Assembly: GCA_045657225.1 (NCBI GenBank)
Contig: JAZOSR010000035.1
Location: 20,953 to 84,952 of the forward strand
DNA: 64,000 nt
Source: Eubacteriales bacterium
GTDB lineage: Bacteria; Bacillota; Clostridia; Oscillospirales; CAG-272
Reading direction: 5' to 3'
Both the position numbers and the translations under genes were made by a program. Positions 11,799-26,588 of this stretch are shown one piece after another (within the stretch, counting starts at the first letter, position 1; the number at the start of each line of letters is the position of its first letter). Below the pieces are notes generated by a model, which was not told the origin of the DNA, made no database searches, and saw nothing but the letters and a program-made list of their open reading frames with translations.

Positions 11799-11813
11799 AT
11801 TTTGTAGATATTT
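11799..11813 (+). repeat. left copy of 15-bp direct repeat ATTTTGTAGATATTT (candidate attL / element end)
   Basis: Exact match to 26574-26588; continues cGCAAA vs tGCtAAA. Confidence 0.8.
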
Positions 11814-11841: not shown

Positions 11842-12900
11842 TTAAGCAAATTTTTTTATGCCGAGGGTGGAGAGCTCGGCGTGGAAGCGTTCTCTTGCGG
11901 TGTCCCAATTAAAGAGCTGGCGGGGCATATCGTTAAGATAATCGCATGCCTCGGCTATCTCATTATCGCTATAATTGGCTATGGGAACGCCCTTTTTAAT
12001 GAAGCGGCGGAGGATCCTATTTTGGTTCTCGTTGCTCCCTCGTTCAGAACTGCAATACGGATGGCAATAAAAGACCGACGTGCGGACGGAATTACCTCTC
12101 CTCGATAATTCCATCCTGCGCCAGTCTGCAAACTCGCTGCCATTGTCACAAGTGATCGTCTTGAAGATCTTACGAAATTTAGTGATACCGAGCTGTTTTT
12201 CGAGCTTATCCAGGACGGCGACGGTGGAGGCGGCACTTTTATCCGTCGCACGAAAAACAAGCTCAAATCGCGTTTTTCGCTCCGTTAAGACCAACAACGT
12301 ATTACCGTGCCGTTTTGTGCCTATGACGCTATCAAGCTCCCAATGACCAAATTCCTCACGCTGCAGCACGTGCGGCGGACGCAGATCAATACAAGTACCG
12401 CGAGGTGGATTTTTTACCTTTTCCACCTTGCGGTATTTTCTTTTTCTCATGCCGCGGCAAACGAGATCCTTATTGGTGAGGCGGCGGAAATATCCCTTGT
12501 CGATATAGTGATAAAGCGTTGTGACACAGATCTGTGTTTTCACCGGGATCTGTTCACGTCTGATCGTTGCGAGAGCGACTGCCGGGGAGAGCTTGCGCTT
12601 AAGGATCAGCTCCTCGATCGTGCGGAGGGTATCGTGATCATTGCTGATCTTTGGCTGCGCTCCCCGGGCCTCTTTATTGAAATCTGCGTTTCTTTGTGCC
12701 AGATCTGCACTATATTTCTTTGTTTCGGTCCAATCATGATTACGATGCATGTAATAACCGCGTTTCAGCTCGTAATAGATTGCCGGATTAGAATAGCCGA
12801 GGATCTGTGAGATTTTTACGGCATTCAAATGAAGCACATTATACATGCGCTCGATCGTCTTTCTTACCTCATACGTCATTCGTTTGTAACCCATTGTCAA
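11842..12900 (-). CDS. IS30-family DDE transposase
   Basis: 352 aa; N-terminal HTH, then GHWELDSV (D), ITCDNGSEF (D), SERGSNENQNRILRRFIKKG (E) - the IS30 DDE spacing and motifs. Confidence 0.92.
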   Translation of the reverse strand: MTMGYKRMTYEVRKTIERMYNVLHLNAVKISQILGYSNPAIYYELKRGYYMHRNHDWTETKKYSADLAQRNADFNKEARGAQPKISNDHDTLRTIEELILKRKLSPAVALATIRREQIPVKTQICVTTLYHYIDKGYFRRLTNKDLVCRGMRKRKYRKVEKVKNPPRGTCIDLRPPHVLQREEFGHWELDSVIGTKRHGNTLLVLTERKTRFELVFRATDKSAASTVAVLDKLEKQLGITKFRKIFKTITCDNGSEFADWRRMELSRRGNSVRTSVFYCHPYCSSERGSNENQNRILRRFIKKGVPIANYSDNEIAEACDYLNDMPRQLFNWDTARERFHAELSTLGIKKFA

Positions 12901-13065
12901 GTGCTCCTTTCACCAAAAAGGCGGAAGGCGGTGGGGCGGCGCCGGCTAACCCGCCTTGGCGCGCGCCCCACACTCGCCATTCCGCCCACTCTTTTGTTTG
13001 AAATTCCTTTTGTCCCTGTAGCCAGACCCTTGACAATCGGGTGCTTTTGCGATCTCTCCCACAGA

Positions 13066-13197
13066 TGAAAATAAGCCCGAAAGGAGGTGATAAGATGGGA
13101 TACTTACGTATATGCAACTGGATCTGCACTCACAGCCAAATGATTGTTGATCTAATTGCAAAGATGCTCGTCATCTTATAAACCCTTACGGGCTTGT
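13066..13197 (-). ncRNA. candidate cis-antisense (antitoxin-like) RNA A; ends approximate
   Basis: Predicted start about 7 nt downstream of the antisense -10; would be fully complementary to the 28-codon ORF and its SD; a weak hairpin plus U-rich run (CCTTTCGGGCTTATTTT) lies opposite the SD region. Confidence 0.4.
13095..13181 (+). CDS. 28-aa peptide, candidate type I toxin (copy A): MGYLRICNWICTHSQMIVDLIAKMLVIL
   Basis: Strong SD AAGGAGGTGATAAG before ATG; same-length homologous ORF at 18009-18095 with several synonymous third-position differences; followed by a 9-bp-stem hairpin. Confidence 0.55.
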   Translation: MGYLRICNWICTHSQMIVDLIAKMLVIL

Positions 13198-13203
13198 GGG
13201 ATT

Positions 13204-13232
13204 ATTATATCACACAAGCCCCTTCTTGTCAA
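13204..13232 (-). promoter_or_regulatory. consensus antisense promoter TTGACA-17-TATAAT convergent on peptide ORF A
   Basis: Minus strand: TTGACA (13227-13232), 17-nt spacer, TATAAT (13204-13209); the -10 lies in the loop of the hairpin after the ORF stop. Conserved in copy B. Confidence 0.65.
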
Positions 13233-13649
13233 GCCTTGGGGTGGAAAACCTTATCCGCGGTTTTCCCCAACACCACACCGTGGTGTCGGTGCCCCTTTCC
13301 CTGCGAGGTGTTTCATAACGCTCTCGCAAACTCAAAAGTGGGGTATATAACGGTTTTTCTAACTTTTCTCTGACACGCGGGGAGAAAACTTAAAAAAGCC
13401 GTTACATCTTCCCGAGGTCTAAACGACCTCGTTTTGATTTTACTCACTCGTTATGTAGCTCCGCTATCAAGGAAGTGAAGGCAAGGCGCAAGCGCCTTAC
13501 TTTCACTTCCCATTTCCATTTTTGGGGAGGCGCCGTCTGCGGACGGCGGCGCGGAGTTGGTTGCCGCGTACGTTCATCAACAGCGACCGGGGGCGGCTGA
13601 ATACCCCCGGGGTTGCAAAGCCGAACAGCAACGAAGGCAGGTGGAAAGG

Positions 13650-13763
13650 ATGGAGAACGTGAGCTTAAGCGACAAGGCAATACAACGGCTGATCGAGTTT
13701 CTCTCACGTGCCGGGTGGACCGACGCACAGATCCTTGATCTGATCAATTACGTAACGAAATAA
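13650..13763 (+). CDS. hypothetical 37-aa protein (MENVSLSDKAIQRLIEFLSRAGWTDAQILDLINYVTK)
   Basis: SD AGGTGGAAAGG before ATG 13650; followed by hairpin CGAGGAG...CTCCTCG. The 68-aa ORF-track start lies in GC-rich hairpin DNA and is unlikely. Confidence 0.5.
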   Translation: MENVSLSDKAIQRLIEFLSRAGWTDAQILDLINYVTK

Positions 13764-13919
13764 AAAATACCCGAGGAGCCCTAACTCCTCGAGTATTCCA
13801 CATATTGCAGATGGGGTGCGAGCCTGCCCGCATCCTGTCTGCCAACCCTGTATGCACAGTATACCACAAACAAATCTATTTGTCAAGCCCCGGGTTTTCC
13901 CGGGCGGAAAGGAAGAAAA

Positions 13920-14102
13920 ATGACCTATCAAGACCTGATCAGCGCCGGCATTGAGATCCAATGCCAAACCGTACTTTACTACTACGACTATAACCGGGAT
14001 AAGCGCGTGCTGCTTTCGCCTGCAGATGCAGCCGGCAAAGAGATCAGATACATGTACGTGGAGGACGACGTGCTTTACATCGAAGTGGAGGTGGAGCTAT
14101 GA
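13920..14102 (+). CDS. hypothetical 60-aa protein
   Basis: SD GGAAAGGAAG; stop overlaps next start (ATGA). Confidence 0.6.
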   Translation: MTYQDLISAGIEIQCQTVLYYYDYNRDKRVLLSPADAAGKEIRYMYVEDDVLYIEVEVEL

Positions 14103-14392
14103 ACGAATTCAATTTCAGCGTATTGATGAAGAAATCGCAAAACTACACGCCGAGCAGCTTGATGCACACCTATGCGCAGCAGCACCCGAGCGCAAGCTTT
14201 TGCTATGATCTGAACGGCAAGCCCTATCTGCTCATTGCCAACGTTCGCTATTACTACAAGCATTGGCGCATAATCGCCGTGTCGCCGAACAGCGAGATGG
14301 TAACCGTCTATCTCAACGATCCCCACGCACTTGTGCCTATGCCGGGCACAGAAGGTAATTGGGGTGAAAGACATTGGGGAGGTTTGAAATGA
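14099..14392 (+). CDS. hypothetical 97-aa protein
   Basis: SD GGAGGTGGAG; ATGA overlaps at both ends. Confidence 0.65.
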   Translation: MNEFNFSVLMKKSQNYTPSSLMHTYAQQHPSASFCYDLNGKPYLLIANVRYYYKHWRIIAVSPNSEMVTVYLNDPHALVPMPGTEGNWGERHWGGLK

Positions 14393-14550
14393 TCGAATTA
14401 TGGGTAAATTATTGGAGCGGAGATTTTTTCGTAGGACATTTTCCAGATATTACATCAGCTCAAAAATATTTTGAAGATCACAAGGAACGTTTTAGAGATT
14501 ATAGAGGTGAAAAATTTGGTTTCCCATACGCTACTCCATTTTTGCGCTAA
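14389..14550 (+). CDS. hypothetical 53-aa protein (MIELWVNYWSGDFFVGHFPDITSAQKYFEDHKERFRDYRGEKFGFPYATPFLR)
   Basis: Below ORF-track cutoff; found by reading on from the ATGA overlap at 14389-14392; SD GGGGAGG upstream. Confidence 0.55.
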   Translation: MIELWVNYWSGDFFVGHFPDITSAQKYFEDHKERFRDYRGEKFGFPYATPFLR

Positions 14551-14649
14551 AACAAAACATAATAGGGGGCGGTTTAACCGTCCCCGCCACCTCAAGCCCT
14601 ACTCCCTACCACTACCACATAGGGTGCTCTGCACCCGGAAAGGATTTTT

Positions 14650-14910
14650 ATGACAGAAGCTACTTACTACACCATCATACTTGTTTGTGTATCTGCTTTT
14701 GCCATTTTACATGGCATTAACTGCTTTATTCAAAGTCGAAAATATTACCAACTCACCATAGATGGTGAAACATTTCAAGTAGTATTTAATTTAGATATAA
14801 GCCGGTGGAGCAAAACCGTTACTTTCACAGATCTAAATTACATAGAGCACACTATGACTTACAACAGAATTGAACTCTATGAGATTAAGCTAAAGGAGCA
14901 TGACCAATGA
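14650..14910 (+). CDS. hypothetical 86-aa membrane-anchored protein
   Basis: SD GAAAGGA; N-terminal hydrophobic segment YYTIILVCVSAFAILHGINCFI. Confidence 0.6.
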   Translation: MTEATYYTIILVCVSAFAILHGINCFIQSRKYYQLTIDGETFQVVFNLDISRWSKTVTFTDLNYIEHTMTYNRIELYEIKLKEHDQ

Positions 14911-15002
14911 AATACTTCCTCCGTGCGCTTGAGATCCTCGGGATCCTCTCCTTCTCGCTTTTTGTGGGCTATCTGCTCTTTCTGATGGTCTACATCGTGT
15001 GA
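14907..15002 (+). CDS. hypothetical 31-aa hydrophobic micro-protein (MKYFLRALEILGILSFSLFVGYLLFLMVYIV)
   Basis: ATGA overlap with the preceding ORF; single predicted TM helix; ends 9 nt before the NTPase ATG. Confidence 0.5.
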   Translation: MKYFLRALEILGILSFSLFVGYLLFLMVYIV

Positions 15003-15011
15003 GGTGCTGCC

Positions 15012-17177
15012 ATGCTCAAGAAGCTCAAGCAAATCAACTACCGTCATTTCATTGCCGCCGGGCTGGTGCTCGGCTCGGCGGCGCTATGTGTGTTCGTTTA
15101 CAAGTACCCTTTGGTGCGTTTGTGGGAAAGCATCATTGCCTTCATCCGCGCGATCGCGTATTCCTTCATGGATCTCCTCGAGCTCCCCGAGGCGCCCGAG
15201 ATCACCCAGACCGTCAACGACTTTTCTCGGGTAGACCTCACCGGTGCGATCGGCATTGACGTTGACGAGCTCTGGCGGCGGCTCTCCGGGGTATGGTCCG
15301 AGATCTTTGTGTGGGAGCATTTTCAATACTATCTGATCTTCCTCTTGTGGCACTTCACGCGCTTCATGTATTACAGCTGCATTATCCTCTTGATCGGCGT
15401 CGTTGCCATCATTCCCGTCGTGCTTACGTGGGACGATATCAACAACGACTACAACCAGGATACCGTGCCCCTTGTGCTATTCAAGCGCTTTGTGGCAGCA
15501 CCCTGCAGGCGCGTGTTCACGTGGCTTCGGGATCTCCTGGTGTTCTTCCGTAGCTCACGATATTGGAGCTGGTTCGTGTTCGTGTGGCTCCTGAACTTCG
15601 GCGTGTTCTCGGTGGCGATCTCGTTCCTTGCCTATTACTTTTGGGCGCTGACCGCCTTTGATCTCTCCACCTTCGGCGTGCAGCTCGTCAAGCTGGCGGC
15701 GGATCTCTTGCTTATGCTGAACACGTTGCCATGGTACGCCTGGGCGGTGATCTTCGCACTCTTGTGGGATCTGTGGCGCCACCGCATTGCCGACGATAAG
15801 ATGCAGCACATGGAAGCACAAAACAAAGGGATGCTGAGCGAGATGCCCATGTGTGCCTTCGTAACGGCTCCGCCGCGTACCGGCAAGACCACGCTGATCA
15901 CCTCCATGGCGATCTCCTACGCCGCCATGTTTCGCCACAATGCCCTCGAGCTCATGACCGGGAACATGCACAAATATCCGCGCTTCCCCTGGATCAACTT
16001 TGAGCTCGATCTCAAGGACGCGATCAGAGCGCACTTCGTTTACAACCTCTATACCGCAAGGGAATGGGTCCGCACGTGGTGTGCCGGCTTCCTTGAGGAT
16101 CCTTGCCGGCAACGGCTGTGGGATTACAACATAGACCTCTATCCGACGGAATACAACGATCACCTTACCGTCACGCCGATCTGGAGAGCACTCGAGAACT
16201 ACGCCCAGGAGTTTTTTATCTACTTCATGCAAACCTCTATCCTGGTGTCTGCCTACTCGATCCGCGAGGACTTTATCTTTATTGACGAGGGGAACTTCCC
16301 GATCGTTGACACCAACTTCTTTGCGCGTGATCCCGCTGCCATCGAGGAGGACAGCAGCTACGCGCACGTCATCGACTACGACATGCTGCGTCTTGGCAAA
16401 AAAATGCTGGAGGACAACCCCAATATAGGCGCCCTCGAATTCGGCGTCGTGCTGATCCCGGAGGTAGACAAGGAGCGCAAGAACGATCTGCGTTTGCGCG
16501 AGCTGAAGCTAAAGGACGACGTCTGCACCCAAAAGAACGACCTATTTAACGAATGGATGAAGATGGCGGGGCAATCTGCCATGGTGGAGAATTTCTGCTT
16601 TTTGCGTATTCTTTCGGATGCACAACGGCCATCCTCCTGGGGCGCGGATGCGCGCGAGCTTTCGATCGTCTTGCACATTGACAAGAAGGGCGACGCTGCC
16701 AACGCCTTGCCGCTCTTCTGGGTGGAGAACGGACTTGTCGGCAAATACCTCTCCTGGTGGGATAGTGTATACGTGAACAGTCGCTTCAAATGGGGCAATA
16801 ACCGTCTGATCACGTGGCTGGGCGAGGGGCTCGGCTCCTTCCTTTATAGCTACCTCCTGCGGCGCAACAACGACTACGGCTATTGGCGGCAGAAGATCCA
16901 GAGCGAGAGCGGAACCCTTGAGAAAGAAAACCTCGAAGAATACAGCTACACGATCGCACGCAAAAAGGACTACGCCGAGCGCTTTGCCTCCGACCATTTC
17001 AAGTCCTACTCACAAATCCAGACCGCCGAGTGTCACGTGGGCCTCGGTGATCTGCCCGCTTACAACTCAATCTATCCCACGTTTGACGAAATGATCATCC
17101 AAAATTCGCACTTCTGCCGGGAACTCATTCAATACTTTGATATCGTACCGGCAGAGGAGAAAGGAGAAAGCAAATGA
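15012..17177 (+). CDS. polytopic-membrane P-loop NTPase (N-terminal ~270-aa multi-TM domain + C-terminal Walker A/B domain); DNA-translocase/assembly ATPase candidate
   Basis: 721 aa; at least four long hydrophobic stretches in residues 13-255; Walker A APPRTGKT at residues 286-293 (nt 15867-15890); Walker-B-like VVLIPEVDKE; no confident family assignment. Confidence 0.8.
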   Translation: MLKKLKQINYRHFIAAGLVLGSAALCVFVYKYPLVRLWESIIAFIRAIAYSFMDLLELPEAPEITQTVNDFSRVDLTGAIGIDVDELWRRLSGVWSEIFVWEHFQYYLIFLLWHFTRFMYYSCIILLIGVVAIIPVVLTWDDINNDYNQDTVPLVLFKRFVAAPCRRVFTWLRDLLVFFRSSRYWSWFVFVWLLNFGVFSVAISFLAYYFWALTAFDLSTFGVQLVKLAADLLLMLNTLPWYAWAVIFALLWDLWRHRIADDKMQHMEAQNKGMLSEMPMCAFVTAPPRTGKTTLITSMAISYAAMFRHNALELMTGNMHKYPRFPWINFELDLKDAIRAHFVYNLYTAREWVRTWCAGFLEDPCRQRLWDYNIDLYPTEYNDHLTVTPIWRALENYAQEFFIYFMQTSILVSAYSIREDFIFIDEGNFPIVDTNFFARDPAAIEEDSSYAHVIDYDMLRLGKKMLEDNPNIGALEFGVVLIPEVDKERKNDLRLRELKLKDDVCTQKNDLFNEWMKMAGQSAMVENFCFLRILSDAQRPSSWGADARELSIVLHIDKKGDAANALPLFWVENGLVGKYLSWWDSVYVNSRFKWGNNRLITWLGEGLGSFLYSYLLRRNNDYGYWRQKIQSESGTLEKENLEEYSYTIARKKDYAERFASDHFKSYSQIQTAECHVGLGDLPAYNSIYPTFDEMIIQNSHFCRELIQYFDIVPAEEKGESK

Positions 17178-17335
17178 CACAGCACAGCACAGCACAGCAC
17201 AGCACAGCACAGCACACCCTCGAGCGTGACATAAAGGACTATTTCAAGCTGCAGGTCGATCGGGATCCCGACGAGCTCGATCTCACCGAGATCTCCAAAG
17301 ACGTGCTTGAGATTATCAGACGTCATATAAAGTAA
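17174..17335 (+). CDS. hypothetical 53-aa protein with (CACAG)7 repeat in codons 2-13
   Basis: ATGA overlap with NTPase stop; MTQHSTAQHSTAQHTLERDIKDYFKLQVDRDPDELDLTEISKDVLEIIRRHIK. Confidence 0.55.
   Translation: MTQHSTAQHSTAQHTLERDIKDYFKLQVDRDPDELDLTEISKDVLEIIRRHIK
17178..17212 (+). repeat. perfect pentanucleotide tandem repeat (CACAG)x7
   Basis: Counted base by base from 17178 to 17212, followed by CACAC. Confidence 0.95.
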
Positions 17336-17363
17336 TACAATTCAAACGTTTAAATTGTATTAC
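17332..17363. promoter_or_regulatory. 32-nt near-perfect palindrome GTAATACAATT-CAAACGTTTA-AATTGTATTAC (terminator and/or operator upstream of the RHH gene)
   Basis: 11-bp perfect arms; one mismatched pair in the centre; 20 nt before the RHH gene ATG. Confidence 0.6.
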
Positions 17364-17382
17364 ATCCTTGTGAGGAGCGATT

Positions 17383-17619
17383 ATGTATAAACAAAGAGAT
17401 AAGCTAATCAGTATACGCGTCAATAGCAAGCTGTTGGAGCAAGTGAAAAAGATCATCGATGCCAAAACCGAGGTCAGAGAAGGTTGGGGTGCTCGTAAAA
17501 TTTATTACTACCGCGACGAAAAACGTCCCTATGAATATGATAAATTCACCATTGCAGATCTTCTCGAAGAAGCCATGGAAAAATACCTCGAGGAACAAAC
17601 ACCTTCAGCGCAAAAGTAA
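17383..17619 (+). CDS. ribbon-helix-helix (CopG/Arc-like) DNA-binding protein
   Basis: 78 aa; SD GAGGAG; N-terminal KLISIRVNSKLLEQVKKII fits the RHH beta-strand plus helix pattern. Confidence 0.7.
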   Translation: MYKQRDKLISIRVNSKLLEQVKKIIDAKTEVREGWGARKIYYYRDEKRPYEYDKFTIADLLEEAMEKYLEEQTPSAQK

Positions 17620-17667
17620 TACACGGCGCCGGAAATGTAATACACGGCGCCGGAAATGTAATACATC
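17616..17667 (+). repeat. 21-nt tandem direct repeat GTAATACACGGCGCCGGAAAT x2 plus partial third copy (iterons)
   Basis: 17616-17636 and 17637-17657 identical; 17658-17667 GTAATACATC. Confidence 0.9.
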
Positions 17668-17731
17668 ATTCAACGTCTGACAACGTATCACATTTAACCA
17701 GGGTTTTTGTATTACTTTGTGCGATCGCCAT

Positions 17732-17773
17732 ATGTAATACATTGCTGTGAGATCTCACTGCAATGTATTACAT
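17732..17773. repeat. 42-nt near-perfect palindrome ATGTAATACATTGC-TGTGAGATCTCACT-GCAATGTATTACAT
   Basis: Only one mismatched pair; carries two more GTAATAC boxes in inverted orientation. Confidence 0.8.
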
Positions 17774-17974
17774 ACTTAAGCAAACAAAAACAGCCCTCGG
17801 GCATTGCCCGGGGGCTTTTCACACTTTTGTGCATTTTGTATATTCAGAAGATCTATTTTGCGCTCCGATCGCCACGCTGCAGCGCAAGTTTTCTGTGTAT
17901 CTTGCACAACTCTCCCCGGGCTCACCCTAACCTCGTATTCACCCACTTGACACTCACGGGCTTGCATAATCCCC

Positions 17975-18111
17975 GAAAAAGGAAACAAACCCGAAGGGAG
18001 GTGATAAGATGCTATACGTACGTATATACAATTGGGTCAACGCTCATTACCACACGATCCTTGACCTAATTGTAATGCTACTCGCACACTTATAACCCCC
18101 AACGGGCTTGT
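17975..18111 (-). ncRNA. candidate cis-antisense (antitoxin-like) RNA B; ends approximate
   Basis: Starts downstream of the antisense -10; CCCTTCGGG hairpin plus TTTGTTTCCTTTTT run opposite the SD region. Confidence 0.4.
18009..18095 (+). CDS. 28-aa peptide, candidate type I toxin (copy B): MLYVRIYNWVNAHYHTILDLIVMLLAHL
   Basis: SD AGGGAGGTGATAAG; same length and frame as copy A; synonymous differences (AAC/AAT, CAC/CAT, ATT/ATC, GAT/GAC) argue for coding constraint. Confidence 0.55.
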   Translation: MLYVRIYNWVNAHYHTILDLIVMLLAHL

Positions 18112-18117
18112 GTGGTT

Positions 18118-18146
18118 ATTATATCATACAAGCCCAATCCTGTCAA
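18118..18146 (-). promoter_or_regulatory. consensus antisense promoter TTGACA-17-TATAAT convergent on peptide ORF B
   Basis: Minus strand TTGACA (18141-18146), 17 nt, TATAAT (18118-18123); same position relative to the hairpin as in copy A. Confidence 0.65.
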
Positions 18147-18176
18147 GTCCTCACCGGGGAGAGAGCTTTCGATCTA

Positions 18177-18362
18177 TTGACAATTTTCCCCTTTTGTGAT
18201 ATCCTTTTATTGTCACACAATTTCATCACAATCACAGGGGAAACTATCTTTGGTAAAAAGTGTTCCTCTCTTTTTCTCATACCCTTGTGGTTGTGGAATT
18301 GTGTGACAACAATGAGTGGACCACTTTTTCGGTGTGCCTCTCGTTGGAGGCACACTTTTTTA
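18177..18362 (+). ncRNA. candidate ~150-nt small RNA (promoter TTGACA-17-TATCCT to strong intrinsic terminator)
   Basis: TTGACA 18177-18182, TATCCT 18200-18205; terminator GTGTGCCTC-loop-GAGGCACAC (18332-18355) plus T6ATTTT; no SD-preceded ORF inside; contains ATTGTCACACAAT / ATTGTGTGACAA inverted boxes. Confidence 0.45.
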
Positions 18363-18379
18363 TTTTCGACATTTTTCAC

Positions 18380-18408
18380 TTGCACGTGCGCCTGCTTTTC
18401 GCTAAAAT
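18380..18408 (+). promoter_or_regulatory. promoter TTGCAC-17-TAAAAT for the zinc-ribbon/nuclease gene
   Basis: Read from sequence; 28 nt upstream of ATG 18436 (SD GGAGG). Confidence 0.6.
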
Positions 18409-18435: not shown

Positions 18436-19176
18436 ATGGCTGACAAACTTATTTGCCCGATCTGTGGCGAACCAACACGAATCTACATGGGAAACGCACG
18501 CAAGGACCGTCTTTGCGGCAAACATGCCGACATGCTTAAGGCAGGTGATCTGATCCTCGGCGAGGACGGAAAATTCACCCTCAAGGATGCACCAAAGCCG
18601 GAGCTGAAGGAGAGAGCTGCGGCAGAACCGGCAGCTGCTTCTGATCTGACGTGCATTATCTGCGGCGAGCCGAGTAATGGGAAGCATTTTTGTGTGAAAT
18701 GTTATCACAAATACAAAAACAAAATCATTTATCTAAAGATAAAAGATTGCGTAGAATATGAACCACTCGGTTATGAATATGAAAGTGATTTAGTATGCGA
18801 AGATGGTCACATTGTAAAAAGTGAACCCGAACGAAACATTGACAATTGGCTTTTCAATCACGATATTAAACATATTTATGAGAGAACTTATCAAGTAAAC
18901 GAAACCGTGAAATTGCGTCCTGACTGGTGCTTACCGGGTTACATCAAAGATGAAGATGGACGCCCTGTTGATGTTTATGTTGAATATTGGGGAATCGAAG
19001 GCAGTGCAAAATATGAAAATATAAAGAATTATAAACTTCCTATTTACCAACAAGAAGGATTAACGCTAATAAACATCAACGCCGAACAAGACAAACGAGA
19101 TATAAGTGCAGCTCTTGATTGGAAAGTTTGGAACAAGAAAAATATCAAACCCTATCGAATCAATTTTCTTAAATAA
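18436..19176 (+). CDS. double zinc-ribbon protein with C-terminal PD-(D/E)xK-like nuclease domain
   Basis: 246 aa; CPICG...CGKH and CIICG...CVKCYH motifs; C-terminal SEPERNIDNWL...YERTY...RPDWCLP...VYVEYWG...Y...K...Y resembles the restriction-endonuclease-like module seen at the N-terminus of some UvrD/helicase IV-like proteins (from memory). Confidence 0.75.
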   Translation: MADKLICPICGEPTRIYMGNARKDRLCGKHADMLKAGDLILGEDGKFTLKDAPKPELKERAAAEPAAASDLTCIICGEPSNGKHFCVKCYHKYKNKIIYLKIKDCVEYEPLGYEYESDLVCEDGHIVKSEPERNIDNWLFNHDIKHIYERTYQVNETVKLRPDWCLPGYIKDEDGRPVDVYVEYWGIEGSAKYENIKNYKLPIYQQEGLTLININAEQDKRDISAALDWKVWNKKNIKPYRINFLK

Positions 19177-23718: not shown

Positions 23719-25149
23719 CTAAAATGAATTATCGACACACTCAAAACAAGCAATTTTCGAACCATCACGAAAGTAAGCTCTAATCACAAAAATTTCCGTG
23801 CCGTTTATTACAGCGTCAGGCGCAATTAATTCACCATTCTCGTAACGAAATGTTGTACCATTTTCCAGAAGAACTTTATAGTAAAGCAAAACATCAAAAC
23901 GATTTCCGCCATTATCATAAATTTCATCAGTAAGCGTATTCATTACGACAAACCGTACCGCAACATTTAAACGCTGCCCAGGTATCATCACAGTAAACGG
24001 ACGATCAAGAAGCTCTTGATTAGATACTATATCTACAATTTGATGCTTGTATATTAATCGCTTGTTAAGTAACGATTCCAAGACACTTTCATCTGCATTT
24101 TCATAACCGTTAAAAATGCCTGCAGTAATATTTGCACTGACCATTAAAGCCCTATTGCATTCATCCAAAGCAATTTCACTATAGGAATTGCCACTTATTG
24201 TACTACCTGTATATAATGCCTTAGAACAAACATACGCATAAGAGGAAGCGTATGTCAAAAAGCTTTCTCCATACGGAACAAAAGCATATTGACGAACGGA
24301 TTTTTCCCCAAATTCCGCATAAGGAATTGCAACTATCACACGATTCGTATTTAACATTTTAATTCGTATCAAATAAGTGCGAAGCAACATTTCATTTAAG
24401 CCTTGTTCTTCACTGCAATTTAAGATCTCGTAATTACGACCTAATGTTAACTCTTCATTTTTAGAAAACTCCACAACCCAATCGACCACGGCAGTCATCG
24501 AACTTATTTTTTGCACCTCATCAATAGGAGCCAATAACATCTTAAACACACCACCTGCAGATACTACGTTTTGATAAAAAGTAGTATCTACATGCGCCAG
24601 AAATTTAATGCCGCCGTATTCTCCCATAGAAGCTTCGTTATAAGCAAATTCAGACGGCATCAAATAAAAGTCATTACTTGTATATGGCACAACATCCTTA
24701 TCCGCTGTAGGCGAAGAAATAGGATTAACCTTTATTTTACAGTTGGCTTCCATACCATCATAACGAAGTGTAACAATAGCCTCTCCGACTCCCACACCTT
24801 TTACGATAAAACCGTTTGCAACAGGACCGGATTCACCAATCGTTATATTTTGTTCAACAAAAACTATATCAGAGGCAGAAGATTCATATTCCCAAGGTAA
24901 TGTAACGTCCTTATGCGTCAGTTGAACGTCTATCAACCAGCTCTCTCCCAAAGTCAATTGCTTTTCCGTAGTTTGAATGACAAGCTTCGAATTAATGCTT
25001 ACCGAGCCCTGCAAATCCACAACAGAATTCTCCCGATGCATCATATATTCTTTAAGACTTTGAATCAAATTAACGGCTAAAATAATCAAAAAAACAAGTA
25101 AAACAGCCGTTACTAACAAAACAACAATTTTTTTTCGCTTTGCACTCAT
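23719..25149 (-). CDS. membrane-anchored protein with Ig-like (Big_2-type) domain
   Basis: Start set to MSAKRKKIVVLLVTAVLLVFLIILAV, whose ATG overlaps the Rep stop (ATGA). Segment DIVFVEQNITIGESGPVANGFIVKGVGVGEAIVTLRYDGMEANCKIKV resembles bacterial Ig-like group 2 domains. Confidence 0.8.
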   Translation of the reverse strand: MSAKRKKIVVLLVTAVLLVFLIILAVNLIQSLKEYMMHRENSVVDLQGSVSINSKLVIQTTEKQLTLGESWLIDVQLTHKDVTLPWEYESSASDIVFVEQNITIGESGPVANGFIVKGVGVGEAIVTLRYDGMEANCKIKVNPISSPTADKDVVPYTSNDFYLMPSEFAYNEASMGEYGGIKFLAHVDTTFYQNVVSAGGVFKMLLAPIDEVQKISSMTAVVDWVVEFSKNEELTLGRNYEILNCSEEQGLNEMLLRTYLIRIKMLNTNRVIVAIPYAEFGEKSVRQYAFVPYGESFLTYASSYAYVCSKALYTGSTISGNSYSEIALDECNRALMVSANITAGIFNGYENADESVLESLLNKRLIYKHQIVDIVSNQELLDRPFTVMIPGQRLNVAVRFVVMNTLTDEIYDNGGNRFDVLLYYKVLLENGTTFRYENGELIAPDAVINGTEIFVIRAYFRDGSKIACFECVDNSF

Positions 25150-26414
25150 TTTTTGTTTTTTCCTTTGCACTTGTAACAAATTCCAAAATTACTATCCGAT
25201 TCTACATGATCGAAAGCATGTATCGGCTTTACTTCCTGGCACTTTGCGCACAAAATTTGCTGCACACCGTTCCATATTTGAGGGCCCGGACGAGAGAACA
25301 CCGTAAACCACGGGGAGCGCTCCTCGTTTTGCTTCTGATCATTCAGCCATTCAAGCGCAATGTCCGTTTCGTTGCTCTCGCAATACTCGCGGATCATATC
25401 CGCATCAAGCTTGTCCTCATACTTGCCATGCTGGTGTATCAGATCTATGTATTTTGACGTCTGCTCGATCTGTCTTGCTTGTATCAGCTCGAAAAATTTT
25501 GTCGGGCCTAATATGGTAATTGCCGCATCAATGGCGTTACCGGCATTATTTTGCACAAAATTGACCATACGCTCCAGGTTATAGCCCTTGCCGGGCTTAC
25601 GGTACAAGGAAAGCTTTTCGGCATCCTGCAAAAACGCTTGCCAATACGGAAAACGGTGCCAAACCATTTTCTTGGGGTTGCCGCGCGCGGCGACCTCGTA
25701 ACCGTAATCAAGATAGTTTTCCATCACCCCACGGAACGCTTGTCCGAGCGTCAGCGGCGCCTCGATCTGTGTCACAGGGTCCTTGCCTATGAGGTACTTA
25801 ACAAACTCAAGCGCGCGATCGTCGCGCAGCTGCAGCTCGCAACGTACCCAGTGGGGAATGCTCTCCTTCACCTTTTCACGGTCCTCACGGCCGCGCATTT
25901 TGGAAATGCGCTCCTGCAGCTTATCGTAGATACGCACCAACAGCAACGACTTGGGTGATCCTATATCACACGACAAGCCGTTTGTGGATTCTATCACCTG
26001 GGCATAATCGGTTTTGGCTTTATATTTGTGGTTGCGCGGGCGCGTATCATCGCAAATGCGCTCAATATCCAAAACGCCGGTAAAATCATCGTAAGCAATA
26101 TCAAGACGTGTCAACTTCATAGCATTTTCGGGCTTCATTAAAGCCGCGAAAATCACGTCGTAGCTCTTATGGCTGGATTCACTTTCAAATGTGCGGCAGC
26201 CTTGACCCGAAAACTCACACCAAACGTTGTCTTGTGTGCCTCCATAATGTATGGAGATAGACCCATTATAGAAACGAGCACCATATCCGCGCACTCCTCG
26301 GTCGATCAATTGCCACCCTGAAGTAATCCCGATCAATTCCATCATATCCTCGGGGGTCATGGTCTTGCTCGTAATCGAAAGCCAGTCAATAAGAATACCG
26401 TTCTTATACTCCAT
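25146..26414 (-). CDS. rolling-circle replication initiator, Rep_trans family (PF02486-like), with C-terminal zinc ribbon
   Basis: 422 aa; IDWLSIT, RLDIAYD, IGSPKSLLLVRIYDK, VRCELQLRD motifs in the order typical of Rep_trans initiators/relaxases; C-terminal CAKC...CYKC. Confidence 0.9.
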   Translation of the reverse strand: MEYKNGILIDWLSITSKTMTPEDMMELIGITSGWQLIDRGVRGYGARFYNGSISIHYGGTQDNVWCEFSGQGCRTFESESSHKSYDVIFAALMKPENAMKLTRLDIAYDDFTGVLDIERICDDTRPRNHKYKAKTDYAQVIESTNGLSCDIGSPKSLLLVRIYDKLQERISKMRGREDREKVKESIPHWVRCELQLRDDRALEFVKYLIGKDPVTQIEAPLTLGQAFRGVMENYLDYGYEVAARGNPKKMVWHRFPYWQAFLQDAEKLSLYRKPGKGYNLERMVNFVQNNAGNAIDAAITILGPTKFFELIQARQIEQTSKYIDLIHQHGKYEDKLDADMIREYCESNETDIALEWLNDQKQNEERSPWFTVFSRPGPQIWNGVQQILCAKCQEVKPIHAFDHVESDSNFGICYKCKGKNKK

Positions 26415-26573
26415 TTTTCGCGGTACCCCCTACGACAGTGTTTTGAAGATCTGTACCCCCCTGTTAGCGGGGGGGCACCGCCCGCCCTCCGCCGCGCTTC
26501 GCGCGGCTTCGAGCGGGCATTTTTCGCCTCTCATTCGCTCCTTTGACTTTCTAAAATAGATTTTAACATTCAA

Positions 26574-26588
26574 ATTTTGTAGATATTT
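26574..26588 (+). repeat. right copy of 15-bp direct repeat ATTTTGTAGATATTT (candidate attR / element end)
   Basis: Exact match to 11799-11813. Confidence 0.8.

Follow-up and report, generated by a model that had tools for sequence, protein, structure and literature searches.

A 64-kb stretch of genomic DNA from an Eubacteriales bacterium (contig JAZOSR010000035.1 of GenBank assembly GCA_045657225.1, positions 20,953 to 84,952; hereafter "the window") was analyzed computationally, with attention to two copies of a cassette, termed module A and module B, that sit in an integrated element of ~14.8 kb. Both modules feature a very small open reading frame (ORF) nested in an imperfect palindrome, with a strong promoter in one arm that points backwards through the ORF. 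The explanation that is tentatively preferred, at a little short of an even chance, is that the modules are strand-state switches on an integrative rolling-circle element that encodes an IS30-family transposase and a Rep_trans/MobT-like nickase. In its most specific form, the proposal is that the palindrome becomes a hairpin promoter only in single-stranded DNA (ssDNA), that the consensus arm of the same hairpin acts as an antisense promoter in double-stranded DNA (dsDNA), and that a 28-residue protein, possibly along with downstream genes, would be expressed only while the element is single-stranded and would be silenced afterwards; this bifunctional version is considered possible but on balance doubtful.

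The palindromic cassette and its copies

In an earlier sequence-only reading of the window, module B had been described as a diverged recurrence of module A in the same orientation and with the same relative layout. All of the parts named there (a TTGACA box, a Shine-Dalgarno (SD) sequence, the ORF, a hairpin and a minus-strand TTGACA-17-TATAAT promoter) were located in the present analysis (Table 1). The two modules were offset by exactly 4914 nt and could be aligned without gaps over a 162-nt block that extends from the 5' untranslated region to the antisense -35 box. Identity over this block was 125/162 (77%); thus, the repeat stands, and the by-eye estimate of roughly two-thirds identity is replaced by the higher value. 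The ORFs were 71% identical in nucleotides and their products identical at 13 of 28 residues, and the four synonymous codon pairs pointed out earlier (AAC/AAT, CAC/CAT, ATT/ATC and GAT/GAC) were correct. A 15-nt SD-ATG string and a 34-nt hairpin/promoter pattern each occurred exactly twice in the window, compared to expectations of 0.06 and 0.00, respectively, which excludes a chance origin of the repeat. These comparisons support the assignment of module B as a true paralogue of module A. As had also been observed, the two modules bracket a plus-strand operon, the hallmark of which is a 721-residue P-loop protein (referred to as the NTPase); this layout is kept in relatives.

Loci around homologues of the NTPase were fetched and searched using nhmmer and a covariance model. 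In all, 14 copies of the cassette were found in 9 independent related loci, with 2-3 copies per ~15-kb element, and every copy had the orientation of the NTPase operon. The A-type copies always adjoined the transposase gene, and the B-type copies were always located 3' of the NTPase operon; one relative (L007) had a third copy, module C, in front of an NTPase sub-operon and directly before the SD of a gene. Because A-type copies grouped together and B-type copies likewise, the duplication predates the divergence of these elements, in which orthologous positions were retained although the NTPases were only 62-81% identical. The sequence-only reading had allowed that the repeat would be non-coding if homologues failed to keep the ORF open or the antisense promoter intact; across the 9 loci, both were preserved in 14 of 14 copies. 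The covariance-model search yielded no diverged copies in relatives with NTPases of ≤62% identity. A scan of genome contigs with a single NTPase query returned only two distant loci, both without the module, and a scan of viral contigs with the NTPase returned no match. Megablast of positions 12900-18400 against phage and plasmid collections likewise gave no match. Single matches to an SD-ATG...CTTATAA pattern in viral contigs and in metagenome contigs were rejected as chance occurrences using nhmmer.

The palindrome, which takes in the whole cassette including its promoter arms, is the feature that the earlier reading missed. With nhmmer, each module matched its own reverse complement (E-values down to 1e-23), and the sense and antisense arms both started with CTTGACA-N5-7-GGGCTTG. 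An independent repeat search paired 13029-13053 with 13209-13233 and 17945-17970 with 18123-18148 as outer arms. The two arms were not equivalent as promoters. In the antisense arm, the promoter with its extended -10 was near-consensus in all 14 copies, and the hexamers of module B matched the consensus at 12 of 12 positions. In the sense arm, TTGACA was retained in 13 copies, but sequences such as TCTCTC, TCACTC and TCCCCG stood opposite TGnTATAAT, and a usable -10 was lacking from every one of the 14. The sense TTGACA box is accordingly present as a hexamer but could not be upheld as part of a normal promoter.

When the minus strand of the full module was folded as ssDNA, a single hairpin was predicted in which the -35 boxes and the spacers were paired and TATAAT lay in an internal loop. 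The z-scores for the two modules were -4.6 and -6.0, the latter belonging to module B (-39.5 kcal/mol). Over the 14-copy alignment, the outer helices were 89% paired (33-49% in slid controls); 5 of 13 spacer pairs had compensatory changes, and the observed covariation was reached in 0 of 500 column shuffles. By contrast, only 43% of the cells in the -10 hexamer were paired, and A-11, the base that is flipped out by sigma, was paired in a single copy. The predicted antisense RNA starts downstream of the outer helices, and the predicted sense RNA includes just one of the two helix arms; neither predicted RNA therefore explains the helices.

The outer helices were also formed better on one strand than on the other: 269 of 294 cells were paired on the minus strand (22 as G.T), compared to 253 on the plus strand (6 as G.T). 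The minimum free energy calculated with DNA parameters was lower for the minus strand in 13 of 14 copies, with means of -43.8 and -38.5 kcal/mol. A 420-nt leader next to module A was used as a control and was biased oppositely (40 G.U on the plus strand vs. 12 on the minus), so the minus-strand bias is local and not a general mutational or compositional skew. Upstream of the gene for the rolling-circle initiator (Rep), a GC-rich hairpin with a CT'AA motif was found that is conserved in the relative L014. In hairpins of this kind, the loop holds a conserved CT'AA that is the nicking site of MOBT relaxases and Rep_trans initiators (PMC9371924). As the motif reads on the minus strand, the nick was placed there; the minus strand would then be the displaced or transferred strand, the template for the plus-strand genes and the strand with the better hairpins. 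A covarying palindrome that forms better on the minus strand, together with a nick motif on that strand, suggests a function in ssDNA, either as a promoter or as a single-strand origin.

The ends of the antisense RNA were deduced from the promoter and a U tract. In every copy, this RNA was predicted to form a rod or panhandle in which 5' AAGCCCG pairs with 3' CGGGCUU (CGGGUUU in module B), followed by a U-rich tail; for module B, the fold had an energy of -55 kcal/mol and a z-score of -6.7. The consensus rod comprised 37 pairs, 7 of which had compensatory changes. In the inner rod, 375 of 406 cells were paired on the minus strand (17 G.U) vs. 363 of 406 on the plus strand (5 G.U), and the apical region was the most diverged part between the paralogues. 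In the predicted sense RNA (z = -6.0), the SD and AUG were paired with an anti-SD just 3' of the stop codon, and a 13-bp 3' hairpin followed this sequestering fold. Formation of the hairpin at 18104-18135 is limited to the sense RNA and to DNA, and compensatory variants of it were present in copies L001B, L009B and L015B. No Rfam family matched at gathering score when the whole window was searched, and searches with both modules at E ≤ 10 gave only weak sub-threshold matches, mostly to microRNA precursors, which were attributed to chance.

The ORF had 28-29 codons and, in each of the 14 copies, ran uninterrupted from the SD-ATG to a shared TAA. All of its length changes were in frame, and the five other frames contained stops in every one of the 11 copies checked. 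The string GGAGGTGATAAGATG was exact in 12 copies, with the other 2 differing only at the base that immediately precedes the ATG. Its pairing partner varied, and in module B of the window the partner of the ATG was broken and the ATG retained; near-invariance opposite a varying partner speaks for selection on the SD and start codon themselves. In the peptide, position 9 was always aromatic (codons TGG, TTT, TTC and TAT), all four Pro codons were used at position 15, and five Leu codons at position 17. The ratio of nonsynonymous to synonymous differences (pN/pS) was 0.56-0.66 in the ORF frame vs. 0.65-1.24 in the other frames, but this measure is confounded by base pairing and was not taken as the main coding argument. 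For example, residues C-N-aromatic-V are encoded by GCAAUU..GUCAA, which is paired with UUGAC..AAUUGC (L-D-L-I-A), and the covariation of Cys7/Tyr7 with Ala22/Val22 results from pairing between their codons. From these sequence features, the ORF is probably translated; the constraint on its amino acids is modest and entangled with nucleic-acid structure. A conserved ORF on the antisense strand was also considered and was rejected, as its ATG and its length varied among copies.

The peptides were hydrophobic, with a grand average of hydropathy (GRAVY) of 0.8-1.4. Their best 19-residue Kyte-Doolittle windows (1.2-2.0) spanned the usual threshold of 1.6 and were below those of reference toxins (2.2-2.5). 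All 14 C-termini were hydrophobic runs (...VIL, ...AHL, ...TIL, ...AILL) with no charged tail. Four peptides were compared to Pfam, and no family scored above its cut-off; one peptide had a sub-threshold match to SapB_2 (19.7 bits vs. 21). No known toxin or antitoxin family was matched in Pfam or Rfam. The description of the module as "toxin-like" is unproven, given the lack of a charged tail, the borderline transmembrane hydrophobicity, the absence of toxin homology and the want of a functional sense -10 on dsDNA. Of the "coding-type covariation" reported earlier, the conservation of the ORF held, but much of the signal coincided with the base-paired rod. The related argument for selection on both the peptide and the antisense promoter was borne out by the open frame, the SD-ATG, the in-frame insertions and deletions and the intact promoters; at the amino-acid level, where a dN/dS analysis had been suggested, the signal was weak.

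A proposed strand-state switch and its competitors

The proposed switch would draw together the observed repeat, the conservation of ORF and promoters, the palindrome, its covariation, the strand bias and the nick motif. In this scheme, Rep would nick the minus strand, which would become displaced when the excised element replicates or when it enters a new cell. On the displaced strand, the ~205-nt cassette would snap into one long hairpin in which the TTGACA boxes and spacers are paired and the TATAAT of the 5' arm is held in a mismatch bubble, creating a pre-melted sigma-A promoter unique to ssDNA. From there, RNA polymerase would transcribe the 3' arm in the direction of the loop and would produce a sense RNA whose 5' end is ~20 nt upstream of the SD. 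This RNA might express the micro-protein, be extended along the single-stranded template to express the plus-strand genes downstream, prime the complementary strand, or do several of these. In dsDNA, the sense arm would be silent for want of a usable -10, and the other arm, being a perfect extended -10 promoter, would make a ~135-nt rod-like antisense RNA that ends at the U tract. Complementary to the SD and the entire ORF, the antisense RNA would silence any sense expression by the principle on which type I toxin-antitoxin systems rely (PMC6563280).

Parallels to such a switch are found on enterobacterial plasmids of the IncF and IncI groups. On the F plasmid, Frpo1 and Frpo2 are 92%-identical ssDNA promoters that are 5 kb apart and upstream of leading-region genes (PMC9849209), and Frpo and the ssi sequences of F and ColIb-P9 (ssi1-3) are stem-loops that rebuild -35 and -10 elements and express leading-region genes ahead of second-strand synthesis (PMC9849209, PMC12672017). 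The cassette resembles them in being a large imperfect stem-loop on the transferred strand that would rebuild both elements, in having multiple diverged copies, spaced by a few kb and oriented alike, upstream of gene clusters templated by that strand, and in that the RNA may also prime DNA synthesis (PMC9849209, PMC12672017, PMC11541004). In L007, an A-type module is placed upstream of an ArdC anti-restriction gene, which parallels the location of Frpo upstream of ardA, ssb and psiB. The likeness is one of architecture, with no established sequence relationship. Unlike Frpo, the cassette belongs to a Gram-positive Clostridium and to a Rep_trans/MobT-like element, in which no such promoters have been described; one of its arms is a dsDNA promoter that fires backwards through the hairpin, and its stem-loop houses a conserved micro-ORF. 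Whereas Frpo has been reported to be non-coding and inactive as dsDNA, the cassette has no -10 in the sense direction and a perfect dsDNA promoter in the opposite arm.

Several points weigh against the switch. Transcription templated by ssDNA, both start sites, the ends of both RNAs, the antisense RNA and its silencing effect, and any action of the peptide are predictions from sequence. Frpo/ssi promoters have been reported to be inactive as dsDNA, and a perfect dsDNA promoter in one arm is without described precedent. In L008 (5800-6230), the site equivalent to that of module A is occupied by a hydrophilic, non-homologous 52-residue ORF (MRLFLNKKEV...) followed by an ArdC gene; this ORF is faced by a homologue of the antisense arm of the modules, the promoter TTGCAA-17-TATAAT, and no palindromic partner of the promoter was found at that locus. 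An antisense promoter of this kind can therefore work without the hairpin. Homogenization of a palindrome by template switching can mimic compensatory change without selection, and the G.T bias is derived from related, non-independent copies. The identity of the nicked strand follows from the orientation of the motif and from analogy with ICEBs1, ICESt3 and pT181, and Rep is only distantly MobT-like (52.9 bits against the MobT model, the cut-off of which is 600). Because a separate promoter-hairpin-terminator unit and a gene with its own promoter follow module B, this module need not drive downstream genes; with a terminator upstream of it as well, it may act only locally, on its micro-ORF or in priming. 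Finally, selection on the peptide is weak at the amino-acid level, and the switch does not account for the role of the peptide.

The main contender, less likely but to be taken seriously, is a classical type I toxin-antitoxin system operating on dsDNA. In such a system, a weak sense promoter would give a structured, inert mRNA for a small membrane-active toxin, and a strong convergent promoter would give a short-lived antisense RNA, which would act by a block of translation or by induced degradation; 2-3 diverged, non-cross-reacting copies would stabilize the mobile element. Much of the cassette is shared with known systems of this type (Ibs/Sib; AapA/IsoA, Fst/RNAII and C. difficile CD-RCd), including a hydrophobic ORF of ≤60 residues that is open in every copy, the strong and near-consensus convergent promoter, a structured antisense RNA made in cis across the complete SD and ORF, and the existence of diverged paralogues. 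The sequestration of SD and AUG by an anti-SD after the stop recalls many type I toxin mRNAs, the concentration of divergence at the rod apex recalls Ibs/Sib, and the location on a mobile element is like that of the C. difficile type I systems (PMC6563280). However, the absence of a usable sense -10 from all copies would leave little toxin mRNA on dsDNA, and the cluster of charged C-terminal residues typical of Gram-positive type I toxins (PMC6563280) is missing. The transmembrane character is borderline, neither Pfam nor Rfam offers toxin or antitoxin homology, and pN/pS is only modestly reduced. The covarying pairing of the promoter arms, the conserved bubble at the -10 and the better folding of the nicked strand would be left unexplained, and no type I system is known to need a conserved hairpin of promoter arms.

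The same hairpin, bubble and strand data that favor the switch would fit a plain single-strand origin (sso), in which the hairpin recruits RNA polymerase to make a short primer and the ORF and antisense transcript are by-products. Several ssos per replicon are known, and origins that depend on RNA polymerase are standard in Gram-positive rolling-circle plasmids; ICEBs1, which is of the MOBT type, has a functional sso1 (PMC4595007). Like the cassette, ssoA, ssoT, ssoU and the sso1 of ICEBs1 are orientation-specific structured regions of the displaced strand that go with Rep_trans or MOBT nickases (PMC4595007), and in plasmid ssos RNA polymerase recognizes the region as a promoter and transcribes towards the loop. 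This explanation is judged improbable, because a by-product ORF should not have a near-invariant SD-ATG opposite a varying partner, a frame open in every copy, in-frame indels and closed alternative frames. The cassette also differs from ssos in its apparently translated ORF, in having a dsDNA antisense promoter and in being present two or three times in each 15-kb element. The CS-6 motif of ssoA, TAGCGT/A in the terminal loop, was absent from both strands of all 14 copies. A similarly small chance is given to a leader of the pCF10 prgQ/prgX type, for which the sense promoter would be the operon promoter, the micro-ORF a leader peptide and the antisense RNA a control of read-through by attenuation, transcriptional interference or both, with the antisense promoter of module A also feeding the transposase gene. 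As in pCF10, a small peptide ORF is found at the head of a transfer operon, a convergent antisense RNA covers the 5' part of the sense RNA, and terminators lie downstream. The 420-nt leader between module A and the first gene of the operon is hyperconserved, biased towards the plus strand and furnished with terminator-like hairpins, and that region yielded no further good plus-strand promoter. Module C of L007 directly precedes the SD of a gene, and the antisense promoter of module A points towards the transposase gene, for which no promoter is otherwise evident. On the other hand, terminators enclose module B and independent promoters succeed it, which means that the next gene does not have it as a leader. 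A -10 is missing from the sense promoter, and the arm pairing and minus-strand bias would be without explanation. Nor does the peptide resemble the signal-peptide-like pheromone precursor, and no PrgX-like gene is downstream of the antisense promoter. The possibility that the cassette is a selfish or neutral palindromic repeat, such as an insertion resembling a miniature inverted-repeat transposable element or a relic duplication with chance promoter-like hexamers, is viewed as very remote: it is palindromic, short, repeated and intergenic, but it is kept at orthologous positions across substantially diverged elements, conservation extends to its ORF, its SD, its -10 and the -35 boxes of both arms, with compensatory changes, and the window holds exactly two copies, both inside the element.

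Coordinates and surroundings in the carrier element

The features of the two modules and of the element are collected in Table 1.

Table 1. Positions in the window of the cassette parts and of the element features discussed in the text
Feature	Position	Strand	Remarks
Module B, whole cassette	17945-18148 (~205 nt)	both	Imperfect palindrome from sense-arm -35 to antisense-arm -35; nhmmer and covariance model
Module A, whole paralogous cassette	13029-13233	both	Parts match those of module B
Module B sense arm	17947-17975	+	Perfect -35 TTGACA (17947-17952); spacer pairs with antisense spacer; degenerate -10 equivalent
Module B SD, GGGAGGTGA	17996-18004	+	Within AGGGAGGTGATAAG; 4 nt 5' of ATG
Module B micro-ORF	18009-18095 (including stop)	+	28 codons; product MLYVRIYNWVNAHYHTILDLIVMLLAHL
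Module B hairpin arms, GGGCTTGT / ACAAGCCC	18104-18111 / 18128-18135
Module B hairpin, GGGCTTGTGTGGT / ATCATACAAGCCC	18104-18135	+	Antisense -10 in its loop
Module B antisense arm	18118-18146	-	TTGACA (18146-18141), 17 nt, TG-extended TATAAT (18123-18118)
Module A sense -35	13030-13035	+
Module A SD	13082-13090	+
Module A ORF	13095-13181	+	Product MGYLRICNWICTHSQMIVDLIAKMLVIL
Module A antisense -10 / -35	13209-13204 / 13232-13227	-
Predicted antisense RNA, module B	17975-18111 (~135-137 nt)	-	Spans SD and whole ORF
Predicted antisense RNA, module A	13061-13197	-
IS30-family DDE transposase	11842-12900	-	Integrase of the element; NCBIfam transpos_IS30, 213.8 bits vs. cut-off of 80
721-residue membrane-anchored P-loop protein (NTPase)	15012-17177	+	Hallmark of the operon; bait for related loci
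Conserved terminator, GCCCTCGGGCA/TTGCCCGGGGGC	17792-17822	both	T runs on both strands; between NTPase operon and module B
Rolling-circle initiator/relaxase (Rep)	25146-26414	-	Rep_trans and Rol_Rep_N domains; distant MobT match
GC-rich hairpin CCCCCCC-GCTAACA-GGGGGGT with CT'AA nick motif	26455-26475	-	41 nt 5' of Rep start codon

The element is flanked by a 15-bp direct repeat, ATTTTGTAGATATTT, at 11799-11813 and 26574-26588. In L014 (4259-4419), the Rep gene is joined directly to the transposase gene, which represents a circular junction. Genes for threonine synthase and a phosphoesterase flank the element on the left and that for trigger factor on the right, where the end of the element is 12 nt upstream of the -35 of the trigger-factor promoter of the host. 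Integrative and conjugative elements of the TnGBS type, which have DDE transposases, insert just upstream of promoters, and the ends of the present element resemble this arrangement. The start codon of the transposase is probably the ATG at 12894 rather than the TTG at 12900. Between this start codon and module A, the minus strand has a very GC-rich hairpin followed by TTTTT (12918-12990); transcription from the antisense promoter of module A into the transposase gene would thus need to read through two terminators.

The genes of the element are ordered as a plus-strand block of small ORFs that includes the 721-residue gene, followed by a minus-strand block that ends in Rep. The 721-residue protein has an N-terminal helical membrane domain of ~280 residues and then a Walker-A ATPase domain, and its relatives, found in metagenomes of gut and rumen and in metagenome-assembled genomes of Clostridia, number more than 200. 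No family was assigned to it in Pfam, PHROGs or NCBIfam, exact-protein look-ups gave no match, and sequence searches of the PDB with three proteins of the element, this one included, were empty. Its AlphaFold model had a mean predicted local distance difference test score (pLDDT) of 78 and a predicted template modeling score (pTM) of 0.73; a Foldseek comparison of this model with the PDB gave no significant neighbor, the best being faint RecA-like or phi8-P4-like resemblances (E ≥ 0.45). In L016, more distant relatives of it adjoin a REP_ORF2-G2P replication protein. The protein therefore marks an uncharacterized family of small rolling-circle mobile elements or viruses.

The non-coding leader between module A and the first ORF of the operon (13240-13650, ~420 nt) was 82-89% identical across L001, L003 and L009, which exceeds the identity of the neighboring genes. 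Hairpins with compensatory changes follow one another along it, and those at 13413-13431 (with a T run) and 13471-13510 are terminator-like. It looks like an antitermination or riboregulatory leader, and its G.U bias points to a plus-strand RNA. Farther along, a near-consensus minus-strand promoter (TTGACA-17-TATACT with TG, 13886-13858) is followed by a 16-bp terminator hairpin (13799-13764), and the region 13764-13886 is a candidate for a ~90-nt antisense small RNA between two small plus-strand ORFs. Upstream of module B, palindromes of the TGTAATACA type are repeated at 17332-17363, 17620-17680 and 17708-17774, among them a 22-nt inverted repeat that appears perfect (TATGTAATACATTGCTGTGAGA/TCTCACTGCAATGTATTACATA). 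These palindromes flank a 78-residue ORF (17383-17619) with a weak match to Arc-like ribbon-helix-helix proteins and are probably operator sites of a repressor of the element. Directly after module B, a plus-strand promoter (TTGACA-17-TATCCT with a TG extension) begins a unit that resembles a small RNA gene of ~150 nt (18177-18365), with a hairpin that pairs 18207-18225 with 18294-18312 (TGTCAC/GTGACA) and a terminator at 18331-18356 with a T run. This unit is conserved in L001, L002 and L009 and absent from L007. The gene at 18436 has its own promoter, TTGCAC-17-TAAAAT.

Meaning for mobile elements of gut Firmicutes

To our knowledge, the only ssDNA promoters with experimental backing come from a few enterobacterial plasmids. 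Two papers on the subject (PMC8708921, PMC11541004) report none for Gram-positive or MOBT-type elements. A large survey found no enrichment of anti-defense genes in the leading regions of MOBT-type elements, which were dropped from its analysis, and no Frpo-like sequences in a Streptococcus pneumoniae island (PMC11541004). The combination proposed here, an ssDNA promoter or single-strand origin with an antisense-controlled micro-ORF, has not been described before, and the cassette falls outside any described family.

If the switch is real, it would be the first ssDNA promoter in a Gram-positive element of the Rep_trans/MobT type and would bring this principle into gut Firmicutes in the form of a compact, testable module of ~200 nt, one arm of which would serve both as the non-template strand of an ssDNA promoter and as an antisense promoter in dsDNA, tying expression to the strandedness of the DNA. 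Antisense cassettes like those of type I toxin-antitoxin systems would thereby be linked with single-strand origins and promoters. If the simpler toxin-antitoxin reading is true instead, the modules would constitute a new type I family with an unusual peptide. The element that carries them belongs to a widespread family of mobile elements, the hallmark of which is the uncharacterized 721-residue protein.

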